The notes under the pieces: generated by a model | The model's input: the letters and a program-made list of their open reading frames with translations, nothing else | What the model was told of the DNA's origin: nothing | Databases searched by the model: none | Position numbers and translations under genes: made by a program | Shown: positions 7,159 to 58,802 of the stretch, piece after piece | How the letters are laid out: every line of letters starts with the position of its first letter | Numbering within the stretch: position 1 is the stretch's first letter | From: Gammaproteobacteria bacterium | Lineage (GTDB): Bacteria > Pseudomonadota > Gammaproteobacteria > Ga0077554 > Ga007554 | DNA: 64,000 nucleotides | Direction: 5' to 3' | Assembly: GCA_040183005.1 (NCBI GenBank) | Contig: JAMPIW010000007.1 | Coordinates: forward strand, 1,246,188 to 1,310,187

Positions 7159-7632
7159 TCAACGTCGAGGTTTTCTGACCTCTGCTATCAGCCCCTCGGC
7201 GGCGGCCTCGATCAGGTCCAACACGCGCTCAAATCCGGTGAGTCCGCCATAATACGGATCGGGCACTTCCTTCTCACTGAGGTGCGGGGCGTATTCCAGA
7301 AACAGCTTGAGTTTGTGCTGATAACCCGGTGGGCAAACCGCGCGCAAGTTATCCAGGTTTTCCTCATCCATCGCCAGAATATAATCAAAGCTGTCAAAAT
7401 CTGTCACGTCTACCCGGCGCGCGCGTTGTGCGCTGAGATCAACCCCGCGCCGCAACGCCGCTACCTGGGAACGACGGTCCGGCTCATGTCCAATGTGATA
7501 GGCGTGCGTACCCGCCGAATCGATCTCGACGATGGATTCCAGGCCATGCTGGCTCACCAGATTCCGAAACACACCCTCAGCCGTCGGCGAACGGCAGATA
7601 TTACCCATGCAAACGAATAAAACACGTACCAT
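7159..7632 (-). CDS. Low-molecular-weight protein tyrosine phosphatase
   Basis: N-terminal P-loop CMGNICRS (CX5R) and a DPYY motif; 157 aa. Confidence 0.85.
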   Translation of the reverse strand: MVRVLFVCMGNICRSPTAEGVFRNLVSQHGLESIVEIDSAGTHAYHIGHEPDRRSQVAALRRGVDLSAQRARRVDVTDFDSFDYILAMDEENLDNLRAVCPPGYQHKLKLFLEYAPHLSEKEVPDPYYGGLTGFERVLDLIEAAAEGLIAEVRKPRR

Positions 7633-7678
7633 TTTCTACTCCGGAATACGGTGGTTTAACTTTAAAAAACTATATGAA

Positions 7679-7803
7679 CCGCAGAGCGCGCGGAGAGCGC
7701 AAAGAAATTCATATGGTTAGCGTAAGGCGCACTTTCACCCAGCGGGTGACTCGACACAACTTGCCAAGGTCTTTTTTCTCTGCGTTCTCCGTGCGCTCTG
7801 CGG
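7679..7803. repeat. Family-1 intergenic inverted-repeat element, copy A (~125 bp; arms built from three GCAGAG-type units followed by an A-run)
   Basis: Left arm ccgcagagcgcgcggagagcgcaaagaaa. The reverse complement of the right arm is ccgcagagcgcacggagaacgcagagaaaaa. The central part is homologous (in inverted orientation) to the copy at 58654-58783, including the shared GTTAGCGTAA...CAAGGTC core. Confidence 0.6.
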
Positions 7804-7863
7804 TGAATCGCCGTTTTTAAGCCTTACCTTGCTTTTCAATCTGACTACTTCTAGCATAGGATC

Positions 7864-8148
7864 ATGACGTACTACCCCGAACACACGCCCTCTTACTCCC
7901 TGACGCAATTGCGCGGCCTGATCGGCCTGCATGTTCACTATAACGGCGCGCGCTGCCAGATTATTGAAGTGCTGGAGGATGAGCCAGCGCTAATCCTTCA
8001 GGATTGCGAGAGGCACACCATGATCCAGCCGGATCAGCTCGGCGAGGCCCACCGCCGTGTGCCCTCTACCTTTACCATCCCTGTCCTGAACGGCGATAAA
8101 ACCGAGCTCAATCCGGTGTTTTTGGACCTGAATTTGCTGGGCGCTTAA
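7864..8148 (+). CDS. Hypothetical 94-aa protein on the opposite strand, in the gap between kdsB and ptp
   Basis: ORF with a weak SD. No recognisable motifs. Overlaps the kdsB 3' end by 4 nt. Confidence 0.3.
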
Positions 8149-9100: not shown

Positions 9101-9245
9101 TGAGAACCTGTTCACGATCTCGATCAAGGGATGCAGTGCAAGGCAAAATCGAACGAAAAAGCGGAGCATACACGAACTATGTGAGCATTTTGAGTTCGAT
9201 TTTAACGCCGCAATGCGCTCTTCAGCGAGATCGTGAACAGGTTCT
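9101..9245. repeat. Family-2 intergenic element, copy 1 (~145 bp): a 106-bp conserved core flanked by 19-20-bp inverted repeats. The right IR encodes the last 7 residues of LpxK.
   Basis: IRs gagaacctgttcacgatctc / gagatcgtgaacaggttct. The core is ~85% identical to the reverse complement of 30437-30539. Confidence 0.6.
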
Positions 9246-21661: not shown

Positions 21662-21755
<94 letters not shown>

Positions 21756-21812: not shown

Positions 21813-22385
<573 letters not shown>

Positions 22386-23968: not shown

Positions 23969-23994
23969 TGTTGTGCCCGTTTTAATTTATTAAT

Positions 23995-24115
23995 CACAGA
24001 GAACACAGAGTTCACAGAGAAAAAACGATTTCCCCATGAAGGAGACAATGCGGCATTGCACCCTTCACGGGGACGAGAACCCGCACCACCTCTGTGTTCT
24101 CTGTGAACTCTGTGG
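23995..24115. repeat. Family-1-like inverted-repeat element, copy C (arms CACAGAG x3 + A6 / T... CTCTGTG x3) in the guaA-guaB intergenic region
   Basis: cacagagaacacagagttcacagagaaaaaa ... tctgtgttctctgtgaactctgtgg. Confidence 0.5.
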
Positions 24116-24143
24116 CTTGTATCTGCGGATTTGTTAATACAGA

Positions 24144-25610: not shown

Positions 25611-26177
25611 GGGGAGGGTTCCGCCTTAATTGGGAAAAGAATTAACTGATAAGTATAAATTTTATCCTTGACCAGGTAAATAGCATAAAAAATATGGGAT
25701 TGCCGTGCGTCCTGCACCGAACTGCCGGGATATCTTAAATGCAATCATACACCTGCCTGATCCCAGCAACTCCAAGCATGCTTGCGCGTAGTGATATGAA
25801 GACATACGAAATACAATAAAATCAAATAGATAAATAATAGCAAGCTATGGGATGTCCCCATTCAGGGACGTTCGTGCAGATTCTTTGGGGATTTTGGCCT
25901 GATTAGCGCCTTCCGCGCGCTTATTACTGCGACATACGGGTGCCTTACCTTGCTCTTGCCGCCTTATAAATGTGCAATATCTTGCTTGCGCATACCGGCT
26001 AACCCATCAACATCATAATTTTTTGTTATATTTTTCATAATGTTAATTTTAGTAACCCCGGAAAGAAAAATATGGCACGATGTCTGCGTGATATTGCGTG
26101 CAGCAACCCAGTTGCTTTTTTACACCGTAACCCAGTGCTTTTTAATCACGGCGTAACAAAACACTGACAGACTAACT

Positions 26178-26212
26178 CATGCTATCCGGCACCTCTCTCC
26201 TGGATGGCATGA
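26178..26212 (+). promoter_or_regulatory. Leader hairpin immediately upstream of the RBS of DUF2892-like gene 1 (slightly degenerate copy)
   Basis: catgctatcc...ggatggcatg; homologous to the perfect hairpin at 27080-27113. Confidence 0.4.
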
Positions 26213-26242
26213 GTTAGTCCCCATTAAATGGAGGTATATGGA

Positions 26243-26524
26243 ATGAAGGATTTTGAAATGACAGCGAACATAGGTGGCGCCGACAAGGGCTTTAGAACGA
26301 TTGTCGGAATGACCTTGCTAGGCGTGGCGTTGGCACACCCAACATCCACATTGTACGCCACCGTGTTTCCAGTGATCGGGGCCTATTTCGTCCTGACGGC
26401 GATCATGGAATGGGATCCTATTGGCTATCTGGTTCAGTCAGCACAGAAGGTCATTAACCACCTGGGTGAGATGGTCAGCTCGCCGGCCATGGGGTTAATG
26501 TCACGACAAGCTCTCAGCGCCTGA
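26243..26524 (+). CDS. Small membrane protein, DUF2892 (YgaP-TM-like) family, paralogue 1 of 3
   Basis: MKDFEMTANIGGADKGFRTIVGMTLLG...AIMEWDPIGYL. SD GGAGG sits 7 nt upstream of the ATG at 26243. About 85% identical to the two downstream paralogues. Confidence 0.55.
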   Translation: MKDFEMTANIGGADKGFRTIVGMTLLGVALAHPTSTLYATVFPVIGAYFVLTAIMEWDPIGYLVQSAQKVINHLGEMVSSPAMGLMSRQALSA

Positions 26525-26775
26525 TGGCAGGTGCGTGGGCAAGGATGCACCGTGGGCCGCCATGGATGGCTGAGGCCACGACTAAACACATGTAGGGTGC
26601 GTTCCACGCACCACAACCATTTGTGCGCGGGACGCATTACTGCTCCACTGTCAATTTAATGTTTCAAATTTAGCAGCAACAGTTTGCAGGAGTGGCAGGT
26701 AACCTCGGGGACCCGTTACATACTGGCACCCCCTCCCGCCTTTTGGCACGGGGCCACGAGCAGCCGCTCCTACCC
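26520..26775. repeat. ~255-bp segmental repeat following paralogue 1. It matches 27764-27980, the region following paralogue 3 that runs into the xseA 5' flank.
   Basis: Near-identical blocks; for example, the 115-bp block 26661-26775 matches 27865-27980 with a few mismatches. Confidence 0.7.
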
Positions 26776-26972
26776 TTTTATTTCAATTTCCGCAAATAAC
26801 CCGCAAAACGCATATCCACCCTCACCGGTCATGACATGCACGTTGTCTTTTGTGAAAAACTGTTTCCTCGTGCCCGGCATCAGAAATCCACCACCTTCTT
26901 ATCGCTGAACTTGCCCACCACCCCTCCTTTTGTTGCCATCAAGTGAAAAATTTCCGGCAAGAGGCTTGACAT

Positions 26973-27008
26973 CCGACTTAATTGGGAATAAATTCCCAAT
27001 TAAGTCGG
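26973..27008. promoter_or_regulatory. Perfect 17-bp-arm palindrome CCGACTTAATTGGGAAT-aa-ATTCCCAATTAAGTCGG (candidate operator or hairpin), ~135 bp upstream of paralogue 2
   Basis: Read directly. Preceded by a TTGACA hexamer. Confidence 0.45.
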
Positions 27009-27079
27009 AAACGGCGAGCAGTCCACGGAACAGATACTGTTTTTTAATCGTGGTGCAACAAAACACTGACAGACTAACT

Positions 27080-27113
27080 CATGCCATCCGGCCCCTCTCT
27101 CCTGGATGGCATG
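27080..27113 (+). promoter_or_regulatory. Leader hairpin (10-bp perfect stem catgccatcc/ggatggcatg, 14-nt loop) just upstream of the RBS of paralogue 2
   Basis: Conserved with the copy at 26178-26212. The third paralogue carries a truncated version. Confidence 0.45.
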
Positions 27114-27144
27114 AGGAAGTCCCTACCAAATGGAGGTACATGTA

Positions 27145-27426
27145 ATGAAGTATTTTGAAATGACAGCGAACATAAGTGGCGCCGACAAGGGCTTTAGAGC
27201 GATAGCCGGAATGGCCTTGCTAGGCATGGCGTTGGCACATCCAACGTCGGCATTGTACGCCACAGTCTTCCCAATGATCGGGGCCTATTTTGTTCTGACG
27301 GCGATCATGGAATGGGATCCTATTGGCTATCTGGTTCAGTCAATACAAAACGTCCTTAATCACTTAGGTGAGATGGCAGGTTCATCGGCCAAGGGAATAA
27401 GGACACCACAAGCTTTCAGCGCCTGA
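27145..27426 (+). CDS. Small membrane protein, DUF2892-like, paralogue 2
   Basis: MKYFEMTANISGADKGFRAIAGMALLGMALA...; SD GGAGG upstream. Confidence 0.55.
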   Translation: MKYFEMTANISGADKGFRAIAGMALLGMALAHPTSALYATVFPMIGAYFVLTAIMEWDPIGYLVQSIQNVLNHLGEMAGSSAKGIRTPQAFSA

Positions 27427-27482
27427 TTACGCCTGAGCGGACAAGGATGCGAGGAAGTCCCTATCAAATGGAGGTACATGTA

Positions 27483-27764
27483 ATGAAGTATTTTGAAATG
27501 ACAGCGAACATAAGTGGCGCCGACAAGGGCTTTAGGACAATTGTCGGAATGGCCTTATTGGGCATGGCGTTGGCAGATCCAACGTCGACATTGTGCGCCA
27601 CCGTCTTCCCAATGATCGGGGCCTATTTCGTCCTGACGGCGATCATGGAGTGGGATCCTATTGGCTATCTGGTTCAATCGGCACAGAAGGTCCTTAATAA
27701 CTTAGGTGAGATGGCCGGTTCATCGGCCATGGGAATAAAGACACCACAAACTTTCGGCGCCTGA
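27483..27764 (+). CDS. Small membrane protein, DUF2892-like, paralogue 3
   Basis: Same family. Its leader is truncated relative to paralogues 1 and 2. Confidence 0.55.
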   Translation: MKYFEMTANISGADKGFRTIVGMALLGMALADPTSTLCATVFPMIGAYFVLTAIMEWDPIGYLVQSAQKVLNNLGEMAGSSAMGIKTPQTFGA

Positions 27765-28019
27765 TTGGCCTGAGTGAGCAAGGATGCATCGTGGGTCGCC
27801 ATGGACGGCTGAGGCCACGACTAATCATATGCAGGGTGTGTCCCACGCACCACTATTGATTTAGAGTTTCAAATTTAGCAGCTACAGTTTGTAGGAGTGG
27901 CAGGTAACCTCGGGGACCCGTTACATACTGGCACCCCCTCCCGCCTTTTTGCGCGGGGCCACGAGCAGCCGCTCCTACCCTTATCTCCCTTTCTGCGGAC
28001 AACCCGCAAAACGCCGACC

Positions 28020-29477: not shown

Positions 29478-30416
29478 ATGATTCGACAAGCTCACCACGA
29501 ACGGCGCTGTACGCTCTATTTCGCCGTGGGACAATCTGGGTTAATATCGCGGGCACTTGCGCTGCTGCTCATGCTGGCCTTTTCCACAACTTTGCTGGCC
29601 GCCAACACCCTGCCCCGCACCGAACCCGTGCCGGGCGGTGTCGCCATTATTTCTCTGCCAGTAACTCCCGTCCCTGAAAAGGATTGGTGGGCGCGCATAG
29701 CACAGGACAACAAACCGACACCCCCCGTCGCCTACTTCAATGGACAACGGGTACTCATTACCCCGAATGAAACGGGCTGGGCCGCTATCGTTGGCATACC
29801 CCTGGACACCACACCCGGCGAATACAGGCTGGACGTGCAGCCCGTGACAGGCATAAAAGAAACCATAGAATTTACTGTGCGCGGCAAGGAGTATGCCGCC
29901 CAGCACATCACCCTCAAAGACCAGCGCAAGGTTGAACCGCCACCAGAGGATCTGAAACGCATCGAAAAAGAAGCGGAACAGATCAAAGCGGCATTCGCTC
30001 AGTGGAGCGAGCAGCGCGATATATCACTGGACTTCCTTCGGCCGGCGCAGGGCGATTTATCCAGTCCCTTTGGCCTACGGCGTTTCTTCAACGGCCAGCC
30101 GCGCAACCCGCATAGCGGCCTGGACATCGCCGCCCCCAGCGGCACGCCGGTGCGCACCCCGTCGGACGGAATGGTGATCGCCACCGGCGATTATTTCTTC
30201 AATGGCAACACCGTATTCATCGACCATGGCCAAGGCCTCGTCACCATGTATTGCCACCTGAGCAGCATCACCGTCCAGCCCGGCCAGCGATTAGCACGCG
30301 GCGCGATCATCGGCGCGGTGGGAATGACAGGGCGTGCCACCGGCCCGCACCTGCACTGGAGCGTGAGCCTCAACAACACCCGCGTCGACCCGGCGCTTTT
30401 TTTGCCGGGCCGCTAA
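29478..30416 (+). CDS. M23-family metallopeptidase (lysostaphin-like), secreted
   Basis: Signal peptide. HxxxD and HLHWS-type M23 motifs (HSGLDIAAPSGTPV, GPHLHW). Confidence 0.85.
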   Translation: MIRQAHHERRCTLYFAVGQSGLISRALALLLMLAFSTTLLAANTLPRTEPVPGGVAIISLPVTPVPEKDWWARIAQDNKPTPPVAYFNGQRVLITPNETGWAAIVGIPLDTTPGEYRLDVQPVTGIKETIEFTVRGKEYAAQHITLKDQRKVEPPPEDLKRIEKEAEQIKAAFAQWSEQRDISLDFLRPAQGDLSSPFGLRRFFNGQPRNPHSGLDIAAPSGTPVRTPSDGMVIATGDYFFNGNTVFIDHGQGLVTMYCHLSSITVQPGQRLARGAIIGAVGMTGRATGPHLHWSVSLNNTRVDPALFLPGR

Positions 30417-30418
30417 TC

Positions 30419-30557
30419 CTACTGTGTCACAAAGTGCTGAAGGGCGCATTGCGGTGTTAAAATCGGGCTCAAAATGCTCATTTACCACGTGTAAACTGCG
30501 CTTTTTCGCCCGATTTTGCCTTGCACTGCATCCCTTGATCACTTTGTGACACAGTAG
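30419..30557. repeat. Family-2 intergenic element, copy 2 (~139 bp, inverted relative to copy 1). It is flanked by different 18-bp inverted repeats, CTACTGTGTCACAAAGTG / CACTTTGTGACACAGTAG.
   Basis: The core is ~85% identical to the core of 9101-9245. An internal 10-bp stem aaaatcgGGc/gCCcgatttt covaries with aaaatcgAAc/gTTcgatttt in copy 1. Confidence 0.6.
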
Positions 30558-30578
30558 GACTAATCTCTGAGCGCTCAT

Positions 30579-31643: not shown

Positions 31644-31817
31644 CTTCCCTCATTGGCTATGTTGATGTCCGAGACAATGCAACTTGTGCGCCAAAGAGGT
31701 ATTGGGGAGACAAAAGGCAAGACCAGCGGCGAGATGTGGGGAGGGAGCGGCCCTCAGAGGCTATAAAAATATTCCACTGCGGTAGATATAGTGGTTTTTC
31801 ACAACCTCTTGGTTATG

Positions 31818-31866
31818 TAGGGTGCGTCCCACGCACCACAATCATTGGTGCGTGGGACGCACCCTA
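31818..31866. repeat. REP-like perfect palindrome TAGGGTGCGTCCCACGCACCA-caatcat-TGGTGCGTGGGACGCACCCTA between lspA and the fliK-like gene. Degenerate copies at 26590-26640 and 27818-27850.
   Basis: 21-bp arms read directly. Each arm contains a nested palindrome, GTGCGTCCCACGCAC. Confidence 0.55.
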
Positions 31867-31883
31867 CGGATTTAAAAATGGGA

Positions 31884-35239: not shown

Positions 35240-35335
35240 ATCAACCTCATTCTAGCAAGTCGTTTCTTATTGCCACAGAAACACAAAGTTCTATGAAAGA
35301 ATCCTCTGTGTTCTCCATGCCCCTGTGGCAAAACT

Positions 35336-58584: not shown

Positions 58585-58653
58585 TCAACAACCTCTCGAA
58601 GTAGGGACAAGACTCCTCGCCCGCCCTAATATTATCCTGAAAATGGCGATTCA

Positions 58654-58783
58654 CCGCAGAGCGCGCAGAGAATGCAGAGGAAAAACGAGACCTTGACAAA
58701 ATATGCCAAACCACCCCCGCCAGGTGGGCACGCTTGTTACGCTAACTCCCTGAATTTCTTTGCGTCCTCTGCGTACTCTGCGG
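58654..58783. repeat. Family-1 intergenic inverted-repeat element, copy B (in inverted orientation relative to copy A)
   Basis: ccgcagagcgcgcagagaatgcagaggaaaaa ... tttctttgcgtcctctgcgtactctgcgg. The reverse complement of its centre aligns with the centre of copy A. Confidence 0.6.
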
Positions 58784-58802
58784 TTCAATAGCTTTTTTCG
58801 GA

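Follow-up and report, generated by a model that had tools for sequence, protein, structure and literature searches.

What are the hairpin-forming repeats that lie between housekeeping genes of a gammaproteobacterium, and how did they come to be there? We addressed this in a 64,000-nucleotide (nt) stretch of contig JAMPIW010000007.1 (assembly GCA_040183005.1), the whole of which is called the window. A first-pass annotation, made by a model from the letters alone, had described three intergenic hairpin elements in it, which we call c1, c2 and c3. We conclude that these three and a fourth, decayed copy (c4) are very probably gene-less, non-autonomous members of a family of hairpin cassettes that occurs in many phyla. 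The window copies are recent DNA insertions, which is firmly supported. Other members of the family enclose a gene for a small nuclease-fold protein, GxxExxY. We tentatively propose that the repeat units of the arms are recognition sites at the DNA level, and that the GxxExxY nuclease mobilises gene-less copies in trans. The best explanation as a whole, identity plus inferred mobilisation, has in our judgement about an even chance of being correct.

We placed c1 at 7652..7820 on the minus strand (arms 7680-7704 and 7778-7802), c2 at 58637..58801 on the plus strand (arms 58655-58679 and 58758-58782) and c3 at ~23984..24138 on the plus strand (arms 23995-24019 and 24090-24114), the boundary of c3 toward guaA being uncertain by ~5-10 nt. 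Each copy has two inverted arms of CRCnGAG cores at a 9-bp period, matching a profile of 98 arm pairs that is described below. c1 is of the GCAGAG type, with CGCAGAG-CG-CGCGGAG-AG-CGCAAAG mirrored by CGCAGAG-CG-CACGGAG-AA-CGCAGAG, and c2 has arm units of the same type. c3 is of the CACAGAG type, and on both sides its arms read CACAGAG-AA-CACAGAG-TT-CACAGAG. These motifs were far more frequent than expected: CACAGAGNNCACAGAG at ≤2 mismatches had 10 matches in the window (0.3 expected), GCAGAGNNNGCAGAG had 20 (6.8 expected), and chains of at least three units occurred seven times, compared to 0.22 in shuffles.

We observed that c1 and c2, which are mutually inverted, are homologous across arms, centre and flanks. 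Alignment of their centres gave a local score of 24, compared to 13.5 ± 2.3 for dinucleotide shuffles (z = 4.6; 1/1000 shuffles as high). The centre of c3 showed no similarity to that of c1, and the two have only the arms and the outer end in common. Element homology among c1, c2 and copies of other organisms runs 17-27 bp past the arms, with termini of the type CCTAAAAA...TTTTTAGG. The outer ends of c1 are TTAAAAAAC and CGTTTTTAA, and its extreme ends are CTTTAAAAAAC...CGTTTTTAAG; its A-run follows the arm that is 5' on the minus strand. Bases resembling (T)TCACC / GGTGA(A) stand outside the first unit in c1 and c2 (ATTCACCGCAGAG and GAACCGCAGAG) and in c3 (AAGCCACAGAG), and the centre of c1 holds a small hairpin, TCACCCAGCGGGTGA, at 7735-7749. 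Predicted folds of c1, c2 and c3 had energies of -55 to -70 kcal/mol on either strand (z of -5 to -10). The first-pass annotation had correctly given the places of the three copies, the inversion and central similarity of c1 and c2 (the latter proving significant), the greater divergence of c3 and, as Pfam bears out, the operon contexts ptp/kdsB, dcd/apbC and guaA/guaB. Its repeat unit of 6-7 nt plus 3 has to be replaced by a 9-bp period (7-nt core and 2-nt spacer), its extent of ~125 bp has to be lengthened by ~17-27 bp on each side, and the A-run that it saw capping the arms caps one arm but not the other.

To follow the insertion sites we used relatives found by GuaA identity, dcd being too conserved as a probe. 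The guaB-guaA spacer occurred in four states. It is 175 nt long and holds c3 in the window (GuaA 100%), and it is empty, with 23 nt reading GATCT-GTTCA-AAGACGAGCAC, in L204, L205 and L214 (GuaA 97%; retrieved loci are cited by L numbers). In L202 and L203 (GuaA 98%) it has 102 nt and a degenerate small hairpin, and in L213 (GuaA 98%) it has 56 nt and outer-end remnants only. These four states show insertion followed by rapid erosion. The insertion in L202 and L213 is flanked by GTT...GTT. The apbC-dcd spacer measures 218 nt in the window compared to 57-91 nt in more distant relatives. A Nitrospirota contig (L043) carries two copies 1.9 kb apart that are 97% identical over 165 bp, and their similarity ends sharply at CCTAAAAAG and GTTTTTAGG. 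c4, at 35272..35329 on the minus strand in the ribF-ileS spacer, is decayed and has a short loop. Compared to the orthologous, more complete copy in the 98% relative L202 (~271-355), it has been shortened by 23 nt, with the inner unit of one arm gone. These data show that copies were gained, duplicated and eroded within the timescale of 97-98% protein identity.

We scanned species-representative genomes with a single-arm pattern of three CAGAG at 9-bp spacing followed by RAAAA. The pattern matched at least 120 genomic stretches, and the arm motif was found in >15 phyla. The matches listed came from Desulfuromonadota, Bacteroidota, Chloroflexota, Planctomycetota, Verrucomicrobiota, Cyanobacteria, Acidobacteriota, Nitrospirota, Chlamydiota, Zetaproteobacteria and many Beta- and Gammaproteobacteria, cultured isolates included. 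Bases that the pattern leaves free were conserved too, namely C[AG] ahead of each CAGAG and (A/G)CC ahead of the first unit. An inverted arm lay within ~300 nt of 76 of the 126 arms among the matches listed, and about half of the stretches had one at a distance of 40-300 nt. In viral contigs an inverted partner was found for 5 of 149 arms, which we judged near chance by a rough estimate, and most of the viral matches look like coding tandem repeats. The outer ends of c1, c2 and c3 recur in copies of Gallionellaceae, Sideroxydans, Sulfuricella and a Nitrospirota metagenome-assembled genome (MAG), and these copies also have the central small hairpin of c1 and c2 (tCACC-n-GGTGa). Hairpins of other 9-mers (CGCAGAT, CGCGGAT, CACAGAT, CGCGAAG) were seen in L296 (~1406-1620), L274, L029, L105, L060 and L017, nested inside or adjoining CACAGAG/GCAGAG hairpins. 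This arrangement suggests several unit 'dialects', with one element apparently inserting into the loop of another.

In four phyla, whole or fragmentary PDDEXK_3 genes lie between arms spaced 400-600 nt from each other, and all four PDDEXK_3 matches obtained by tblastn in ~800 kb of arm loci fall inside arm pairs. The enclosed gene has ~125 codons and belongs to TIGR04256, the 'GxxExxY protein' (PF13366, PD-(D/E)XK). We also approached the association from the gene, using 80 metagenome loci picked only by GxxExxY protein similarity, of which 74 had both flanks and were counted. Two or more units (mode three) stood directly upstream on the sense strand in 54/74 loci, and directly downstream on the antisense strand in 61/74; both sides had them in 49/74, and gene-internal controls in 0/74. 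Unbiased k-mer counts gave CAGAG in 94/148 flanks compared to 1/148 controls. CGCAGAG occurred 46 times, CACAGAG 43 times and CACGGAG 27 times in the flanks and never in the controls, and the autocorrelation of the flanks peaked at lag 9. Arm-to-arm gaps were bimodal, with 73 gene-less pairs at 0-150 nt, 41 pairs at 350-600 nt and almost none between. The locus-defining GxxExxY match lay within 38 of the 41 long-gap pairs, and the other three (L010, L058, L088) held GxxExxY genes or fragments. c1, c2 and c3 fall in the gene-less class of 0-150 nt.

The same structure can be seen in other ways. Some database GxxExxY proteins start with TAENAESAE or end with PRSLRTLR, which are arms translated by over-long gene calls. 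In Sphingomonas parapaucimobilis YK209 the order is fabD-[CGCGAAG arms + GxxExxY]-fabG, and one arm-bracketed GxxExxY element is present in a strain of Bernardetia too. Gene-bearing copies persist as orthologues across related organisms, and GxxExxY remnants are present in L108, L197, L058, L010 and L088. Wider arm gaps hold host genes (LamB/YcsF, dehydrogenase, NUDIX) or GxxExxY, and open reading frames (ORFs) beside solo arms are ordinary host genes, with no transposase among them. The GxxExxY gene is oriented along with both neighbours in 23 cases and against both in one. This co-orientation indicates that it relies on read-through transcription from the host. Separately, we noted GxxExxY elements of four metagenome organisms (L129, L135, L142, L173) at what appears, judged by common flanks, to be one host intergenic site; two of them have a GC-rich palindrome inserted into the 5' arm. 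A candidate match between the start of the c2 loop and the N-terminal codons of GxxExxY was withdrawn; inner-end similarity was not significant.

The GxxExxY family is large (at least 7,994 database clusters). It was absent from a phage genome collection and had eight records in a plasmid collection, six on replicons >400 kb that we would call megaplasmids or chromids and two on plasmids of 24.8 and 42 kb. In a 2012 survey of PD-(D/E)XK proteins, PDDEXK_3 is entered as a family of unknown function that has undergone 'multiple transfers' (PMC3424549). Literature that names the family, partly checked by single mentions, assigned it no function, and the incomplete literature searched held no paper tying GxxExxY genes to these repeats.

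We used the 98 arm pairs to ask on what level the arms are constrained. The unit consists of a 7-nt core, CRCnGAG, and a 2-nt purine-rich spacer, and there are usually three units per arm. The core has C at positions 1 and 3, which the search pattern set, and G, A and G at positions 5, 6 and 7 with frequencies of 94-100%, beyond what the pattern demands. Complementarity between arms is 0.9-1.0 at the core positions. Position 2 holds A or G, and its changes are correlated between arms (complementarity 0.87-0.97), with double-sided changes from A-U to G-C, and position 4 is nearly free. Just outside the first unit, profile positions o-2 and o-1 are A/G and then C. An arm matched its own partner with a score of 16.5, compared to 8.25 for arms of other loci and 7.0 for shuffled sequence. 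Compensatory change was also seen between orthologous gene-bearing copies, where CACGGAG/CTCCGTG and CACAGAG/CTCTGTG replace one another (L172/L198).

The spacers behave differently from the cores. Their complementarity between arms is 0.28-0.50, which is about random, and purines prevail in them on the CRCnGAG strand of either arm. We counted 55 G.T and 61 A.C mismatches in ORF-oriented elements, the only set that counts for this comparison, gene-less elements being arbitrarily oriented. The near-equal counts show no wobble signature of selection on a sense RNA. Together with the non-complementary spacers, they suggest a constraint on DNA and not on an RNA stem. Purine-rich spacers on both arms are not needed for a stem and point to equivalent protein-binding sites at both ends.

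From these data we built the following model. A family member consists of two inverted arms around either a short non-coding loop or a GxxExxY gene of ~125 codons, and in the subfamily of the window the arms are subterminal, with the outer 17-27 bases part of the element. A protein would read the phased CRCnGAG arrays identically on both arms. The best candidate for this reader is the GxxExxY nuclease, which full-length copies at other places of the genome would supply. By cutting at the ends of the elements it would move gene-less copies in trans, in a manner like that proposed for RAYT on REPINs. An operon transcript running across a copy would fold into a stem of ~27-33 bp, made of 7-bp helices with 2x2 mismatches between them, and by analogy to 23S rRNA intervening sequences (IVSs) this stem could be an RNase III substrate just upstream of the ribosome-binding site of the next gene. 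An RNA role as a by-product, with RNase III cutting the stem or the upstream mRNA being stabilised, is plausible on the same analogy and from where the copies lie in operon transcripts. A broader claim is possible, and we regard it as rather doubtful. GxxExxY and inverted CRCnGAG arrays may form a previously undescribed class of mobile element in >15 phyla, in which a minimal 125-aa nuclease reads phased 7-mers at both ends, moves itself and gene-less derivatives with no target duplication and rides on host operon transcription. 23S rRNA IVSs would then be a like element with other cargo.

Several observations weigh against this model. The 64-kb window itself has no GxxExxY gene. The loops of c1, c2 and c3 showed no significant similarity to the inner ends of gene-bearing elements, and blastx of gene-less loops found no coding remnant, only translated arms in over-extended ORFs. 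The link of c1, c2 and c3 to gene-bearing elements therefore rests on the arms. Neither the two copies of L043 nor c1, c2 and c3 have a flanking direct repeat, and no consistent target-site duplication was seen, a feature for which the first-pass annotation had suggested looking. No activity is known for GxxExxY, and a sequence search of the PDB found no solved relative. An AlphaFold2 model (pLDDT 79.6) gave weak Foldseek matches (E ≥0.02), the top 25 being PD-(D/E)XK-fold nucleases except for two methionine aminopeptidases and one membrane protein. The model supports a generic PD-(D/E)XK fold only, all matches being too weak to assign a specific function. The GxxExxY phylogeny is hardly reflected in the unit variants, and proteins that are 89% identical carry CGCCGAG, CGCTGAG or CGCGGAG units. 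Lastly, 23S_rRNA_IVP, an unrelated small gene, is bracketed by analogous arrays of other 7-nt units in L055, which suggests that the enclosed gene may be cargo and not the mobilising enzyme.

This last point leads to the main rival, in which the enclosed genes are passengers. The arms would be read by a third party, either a host factor or another mobile element, and GxxExxY, S23p/IVP or nothing at all would be cargo, much as in integron cassettes. Two unrelated small proteins, GxxExxY and 23S_rRNA_IVP, in inverted tandem arrays are what this rival expects, and so is the weak agreement between unit type and phylogeny. Gene-less copies outnumber gene-bearing ones, and an IVS of Coxiella has GACAGAT repeats (PMC4990558). 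However, we found no recurrent third-party gene beside the elements in ~1 Mb of loci. GxxExxY was the only cargo with CRCnGAG arms in this data set, and the IVP arms differ in their unit and have a 7-nt period. We consider the passenger explanation unlikely.

The gene context of the copies raises a second rival. All four lie between co-directional minus-strand genes. c1 lies between kdsB (stop 8145) and ptp (start 7632), and c2 between apbC, whose stop (58803) is 1 nt away, and dcd, whose start (58584) is 52 nt away. c3 begins 5 nt past the guaB stop (24144) and ends ~15 nt ahead of the guaA start (23968), and c4 lies between ribF and ileS. The hairpins could accordingly owe their selection to a role in mRNA processing, mRNA stability or insulation between the genes of an operon, acting as RNase III sites or as 3' stabilisers like those of repetitive extragenic palindromic (REP) sequences, with the repeats merely building the stem. 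The nearby stops (1 nt for c2, 5 nt for c3), the next start 15-52 nt on and the very stable predicted stems fit such a role. RNase III is known to cut IVS stems (PMC4990558), and the guaB-guaA spacer of relatives holds other small hairpins. Against this stand the non-complementary spacers, purine-rich on their own CRCnGAG strand in both arms, and the lack of a G.U excess over A.C. Orientation relative to transcription also varies, c1 being opposite to c2 and c3, and the guaB-guaA site is empty in some close relatives.

Scans for RNA signals gave no support to this rival either. At gathering score, Rfam found only one tRNA in the whole window, with no rRNA and no match to the copies, and a search by E-value around c1 (7600-7900) gave noise-level matches. 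Promoter and terminator consensus scans found nothing in c1 or c2 and only trivial matches in c3. The layout of an intrinsic terminator, in which a U-run comes immediately after a G+C-rich stem, is absent, the T-runs lying 10-14 nt off the stem. Overall, we think it quite improbable that an RNA-level function is the reason for these repeats.

A third rival holds that the copies are classical miniature inverted-repeat transposable elements (MITEs), that is, deletion derivatives of an insertion sequence (IS) with a DDE transposase, IS630-like or IS5-like, that binds the subterminal 9-mers. Terminal inverted repeats, subterminal repeats, small size (<300 bp), multiple copies and insertion polymorphism agree with it, and termini of the form CC-TA-AAAA...TTTT-TA-GG could mask a TA duplication in a CTAG-like target. 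However, ~1 Mb of related loci contained no transposase between arms and no parent IS with the same ends. The terminal CCTA/TAGG bases vary along with the element, and two independent copies have no direct repeat outside their termini. This makes a MITE origin very unlikely. The first-pass annotation had compared the hairpins to ERIC and Correia elements, and in this respect it was half right: they are dispersed intergenic hairpins that behave as insertions, but not a lineage-specific MITE of a DDE transposase. Two of its suggestions were fruitful, since further copies (c4, a solo array and arms in many phyla) and empty sites in relatives (the guaB-guaA spacer of L204, L205 and L214) were found.

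The weakest rival takes the arrays as binding sites of a host nucleoid protein or global regulator such as IHF or HU; the units, to our knowledge, bear no resemblance to the IHF consensus. Although a conserved symmetric motif with free spacers fits a DNA-binding protein, and such a regulator was proposed for the 'class 2' sites of Geobacter metallireducens, three TCTCCGTS[Y] each (PMC2700814), IHF/HU binding is only a proposal in the part of that paper that concerns these sites, and presence/absence polymorphism, sharp-ended duplication and the GxxExxY link speak for a mobile element rather than regulon sites, so that we regard this as the least credible reading.

The window contains other repeats. 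A solo triple 9-mer, CACGGGGAT x3, lies at 21839..21863 on the plus strand and has no inverted partner, and it is uncertain whether it belongs to the family. It sits in the 3' tail of a tadA-like deaminase ORF, past the Pfam domain, where it adds PVIPVIPV, and is close to a tRNA gene at 21668-21755. An unrelated inverted-repeat family of ~140 bp has copies at 9103-9245 and 30414-30562; the two are 87% complementary over their inner 105 nt (9122-9226 and 30436-30540), and each copy has terminal inverted repeats of its own of 26-31 nt. A perfect 22-nt palindrome, GTAGGGTGCGTCCCACGCACCA, lies at 31817-31867, with related copies at 26590-26636, 26532-26614 and 27771-27853. Its GTAG head is typical of RAYT-associated REP sequences, and the set would add a third family to the repeats of the window. 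The region 26136-28014 has a low GC content (0.505) and direct repeats of 300 nt (three copies, 73-90% identity), 136 nt (two copies) and 83 nt (two copies). Relatives have one to three tandem YgaP-like_TM genes in the matching region, and it looks like a tandemly duplicated small-gene array.

The neighbourhood of guaA differs among relatives in another way. Downstream of guaA, relatives with GuaA identities of 88% and 97% carry an integrative conjugative element. In L204 (11872-21575), L205 and L214 (97%), an integrase lies ~300 nt downstream of guaA, followed by AlpA and Trb/VirB genes; in L209 (88%), AlpA and Trb/VirB genes begin ~1.5 kb downstream and no integrase was called. The window has no conjugative element at that place, and tadA and a tRNA gene follow guaA. 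Exact matches to the kdsB, ptp and GuaA proteins were found only in short contigs of SRR19360587. One of these short-read contigs of the same organism, L337, starts 114 nt ahead of guaA, and its coordinates place this end inside c3. Hairpins of this kind may break short-read assemblies and be under-represented in MAGs.

The association of GxxExxY genes with the arms ties this protein family to a defined DNA motif and yields a directly testable hypothesis on its activity. A small nuclease that reads phased 7-mers could also have practical interest. Repeats of this class occur within essential operons (guaBA, fabDG, kdsB-ptp), and one short-read assembly seems to be broken by them.

How do these elements compare with known systems? 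A literature search on CACAGAG gave irrelevant matches only. Cyanobacteria have short tandemly repeated repetitive (STRR) sequences, 7-nt intergenic repeats that sometimes stand in inverted arrays; their units and taxa differ from those of the CRCnGAG arrays. MITEs such as Correia, ERIC, Nezha and Chunjie are similar in their size of 100-170 bp, terminal inverted repeats, intergenic positions in operons, hairpin-forming transcripts and presence/absence polymorphism. Unlike them, the present elements lack a cognate DDE transposase and a clear target duplication, and they have subterminal triple 9-mers, a spread across phyla and a coding partner that is a 125-aa nuclease-fold protein.

Aklujkar (2009) described the Geobacter metallireducens sites as 'Class 2 predicted global regulator binding sites', opposite-strand pairs at variable distance, each of three tandem 9-mers TCTCCGTS[Y], and proposed IHF/HU as the binding protein (PMC2700814). 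The reverse complement of this 9-mer, [R]SACGGAGA, includes ACGGAG, on which the ACGGAG/GCGGAG units of c1 are built. In the part of the paper that presents them, the sites are described from one genome and with no link to GxxExxY or mobility. Judged by motif and layout, they are very probably the same kind of element, and these 'global regulator sites' would then be re-interpreted.

The closest known systems are the REP/RAYT pairs and the 23S rRNA IVSs. REP sequences and REPINs are short intergenic palindromes in many copies, often in operons and with no target-site duplication. These hairpins are non-autonomous and akin to the repeats on both sides of RAYT, the gene of a small nuclease. The likeness lies in intergenic, multicopy, non-autonomous hairpins tied to repeats that flank a nuclease gene. 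However, RAYT is an HUH/Y1 enzyme and GxxExxY has a PD-(D/E)XK fold. A REP is a single palindrome of 20-40 nt with a GTAG head, whereas the arms here are 9-mer arrays with no such head, and REP sequences are lineage-specific, whereas CRCnGAG arrays are common to many phyla.

The nearest described architecture is that of the IVS. In Coxiella the 23S rRNA IVS measures 428 nt and has a terminal stem of 28 bp and three tandem GACAGAT, strain-variable in number, before the start codon of the small ORF S23p; it is excised by RNase III within the stem and is regarded as selfish, its origin being unexplained (PMC4990558). In both systems, terminal inverted repeats made of about three short tandem units pair into a long stem around a small loop ORF or none, and in L055 a 23S_rRNA_IVP gene outside rRNA has inverted 7-nt unit arrays on both sides. 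IVSs differ in lying in helices 9, 25 or 45 of 23S rRNA, whereas the window copies lie between protein-coding genes. Their cargo is the four-helix-bundle S23p and not GxxExxY, and their period is 7 nt and not the 9 nt of CRCnGAG+RR. RNase III excision has been shown for IVSs; for the elements described here it is predicted by analogy only. Should the two prove to be related elements with different cargo, our model would offer an explanation for the origin of 23S rRNA IVSs.

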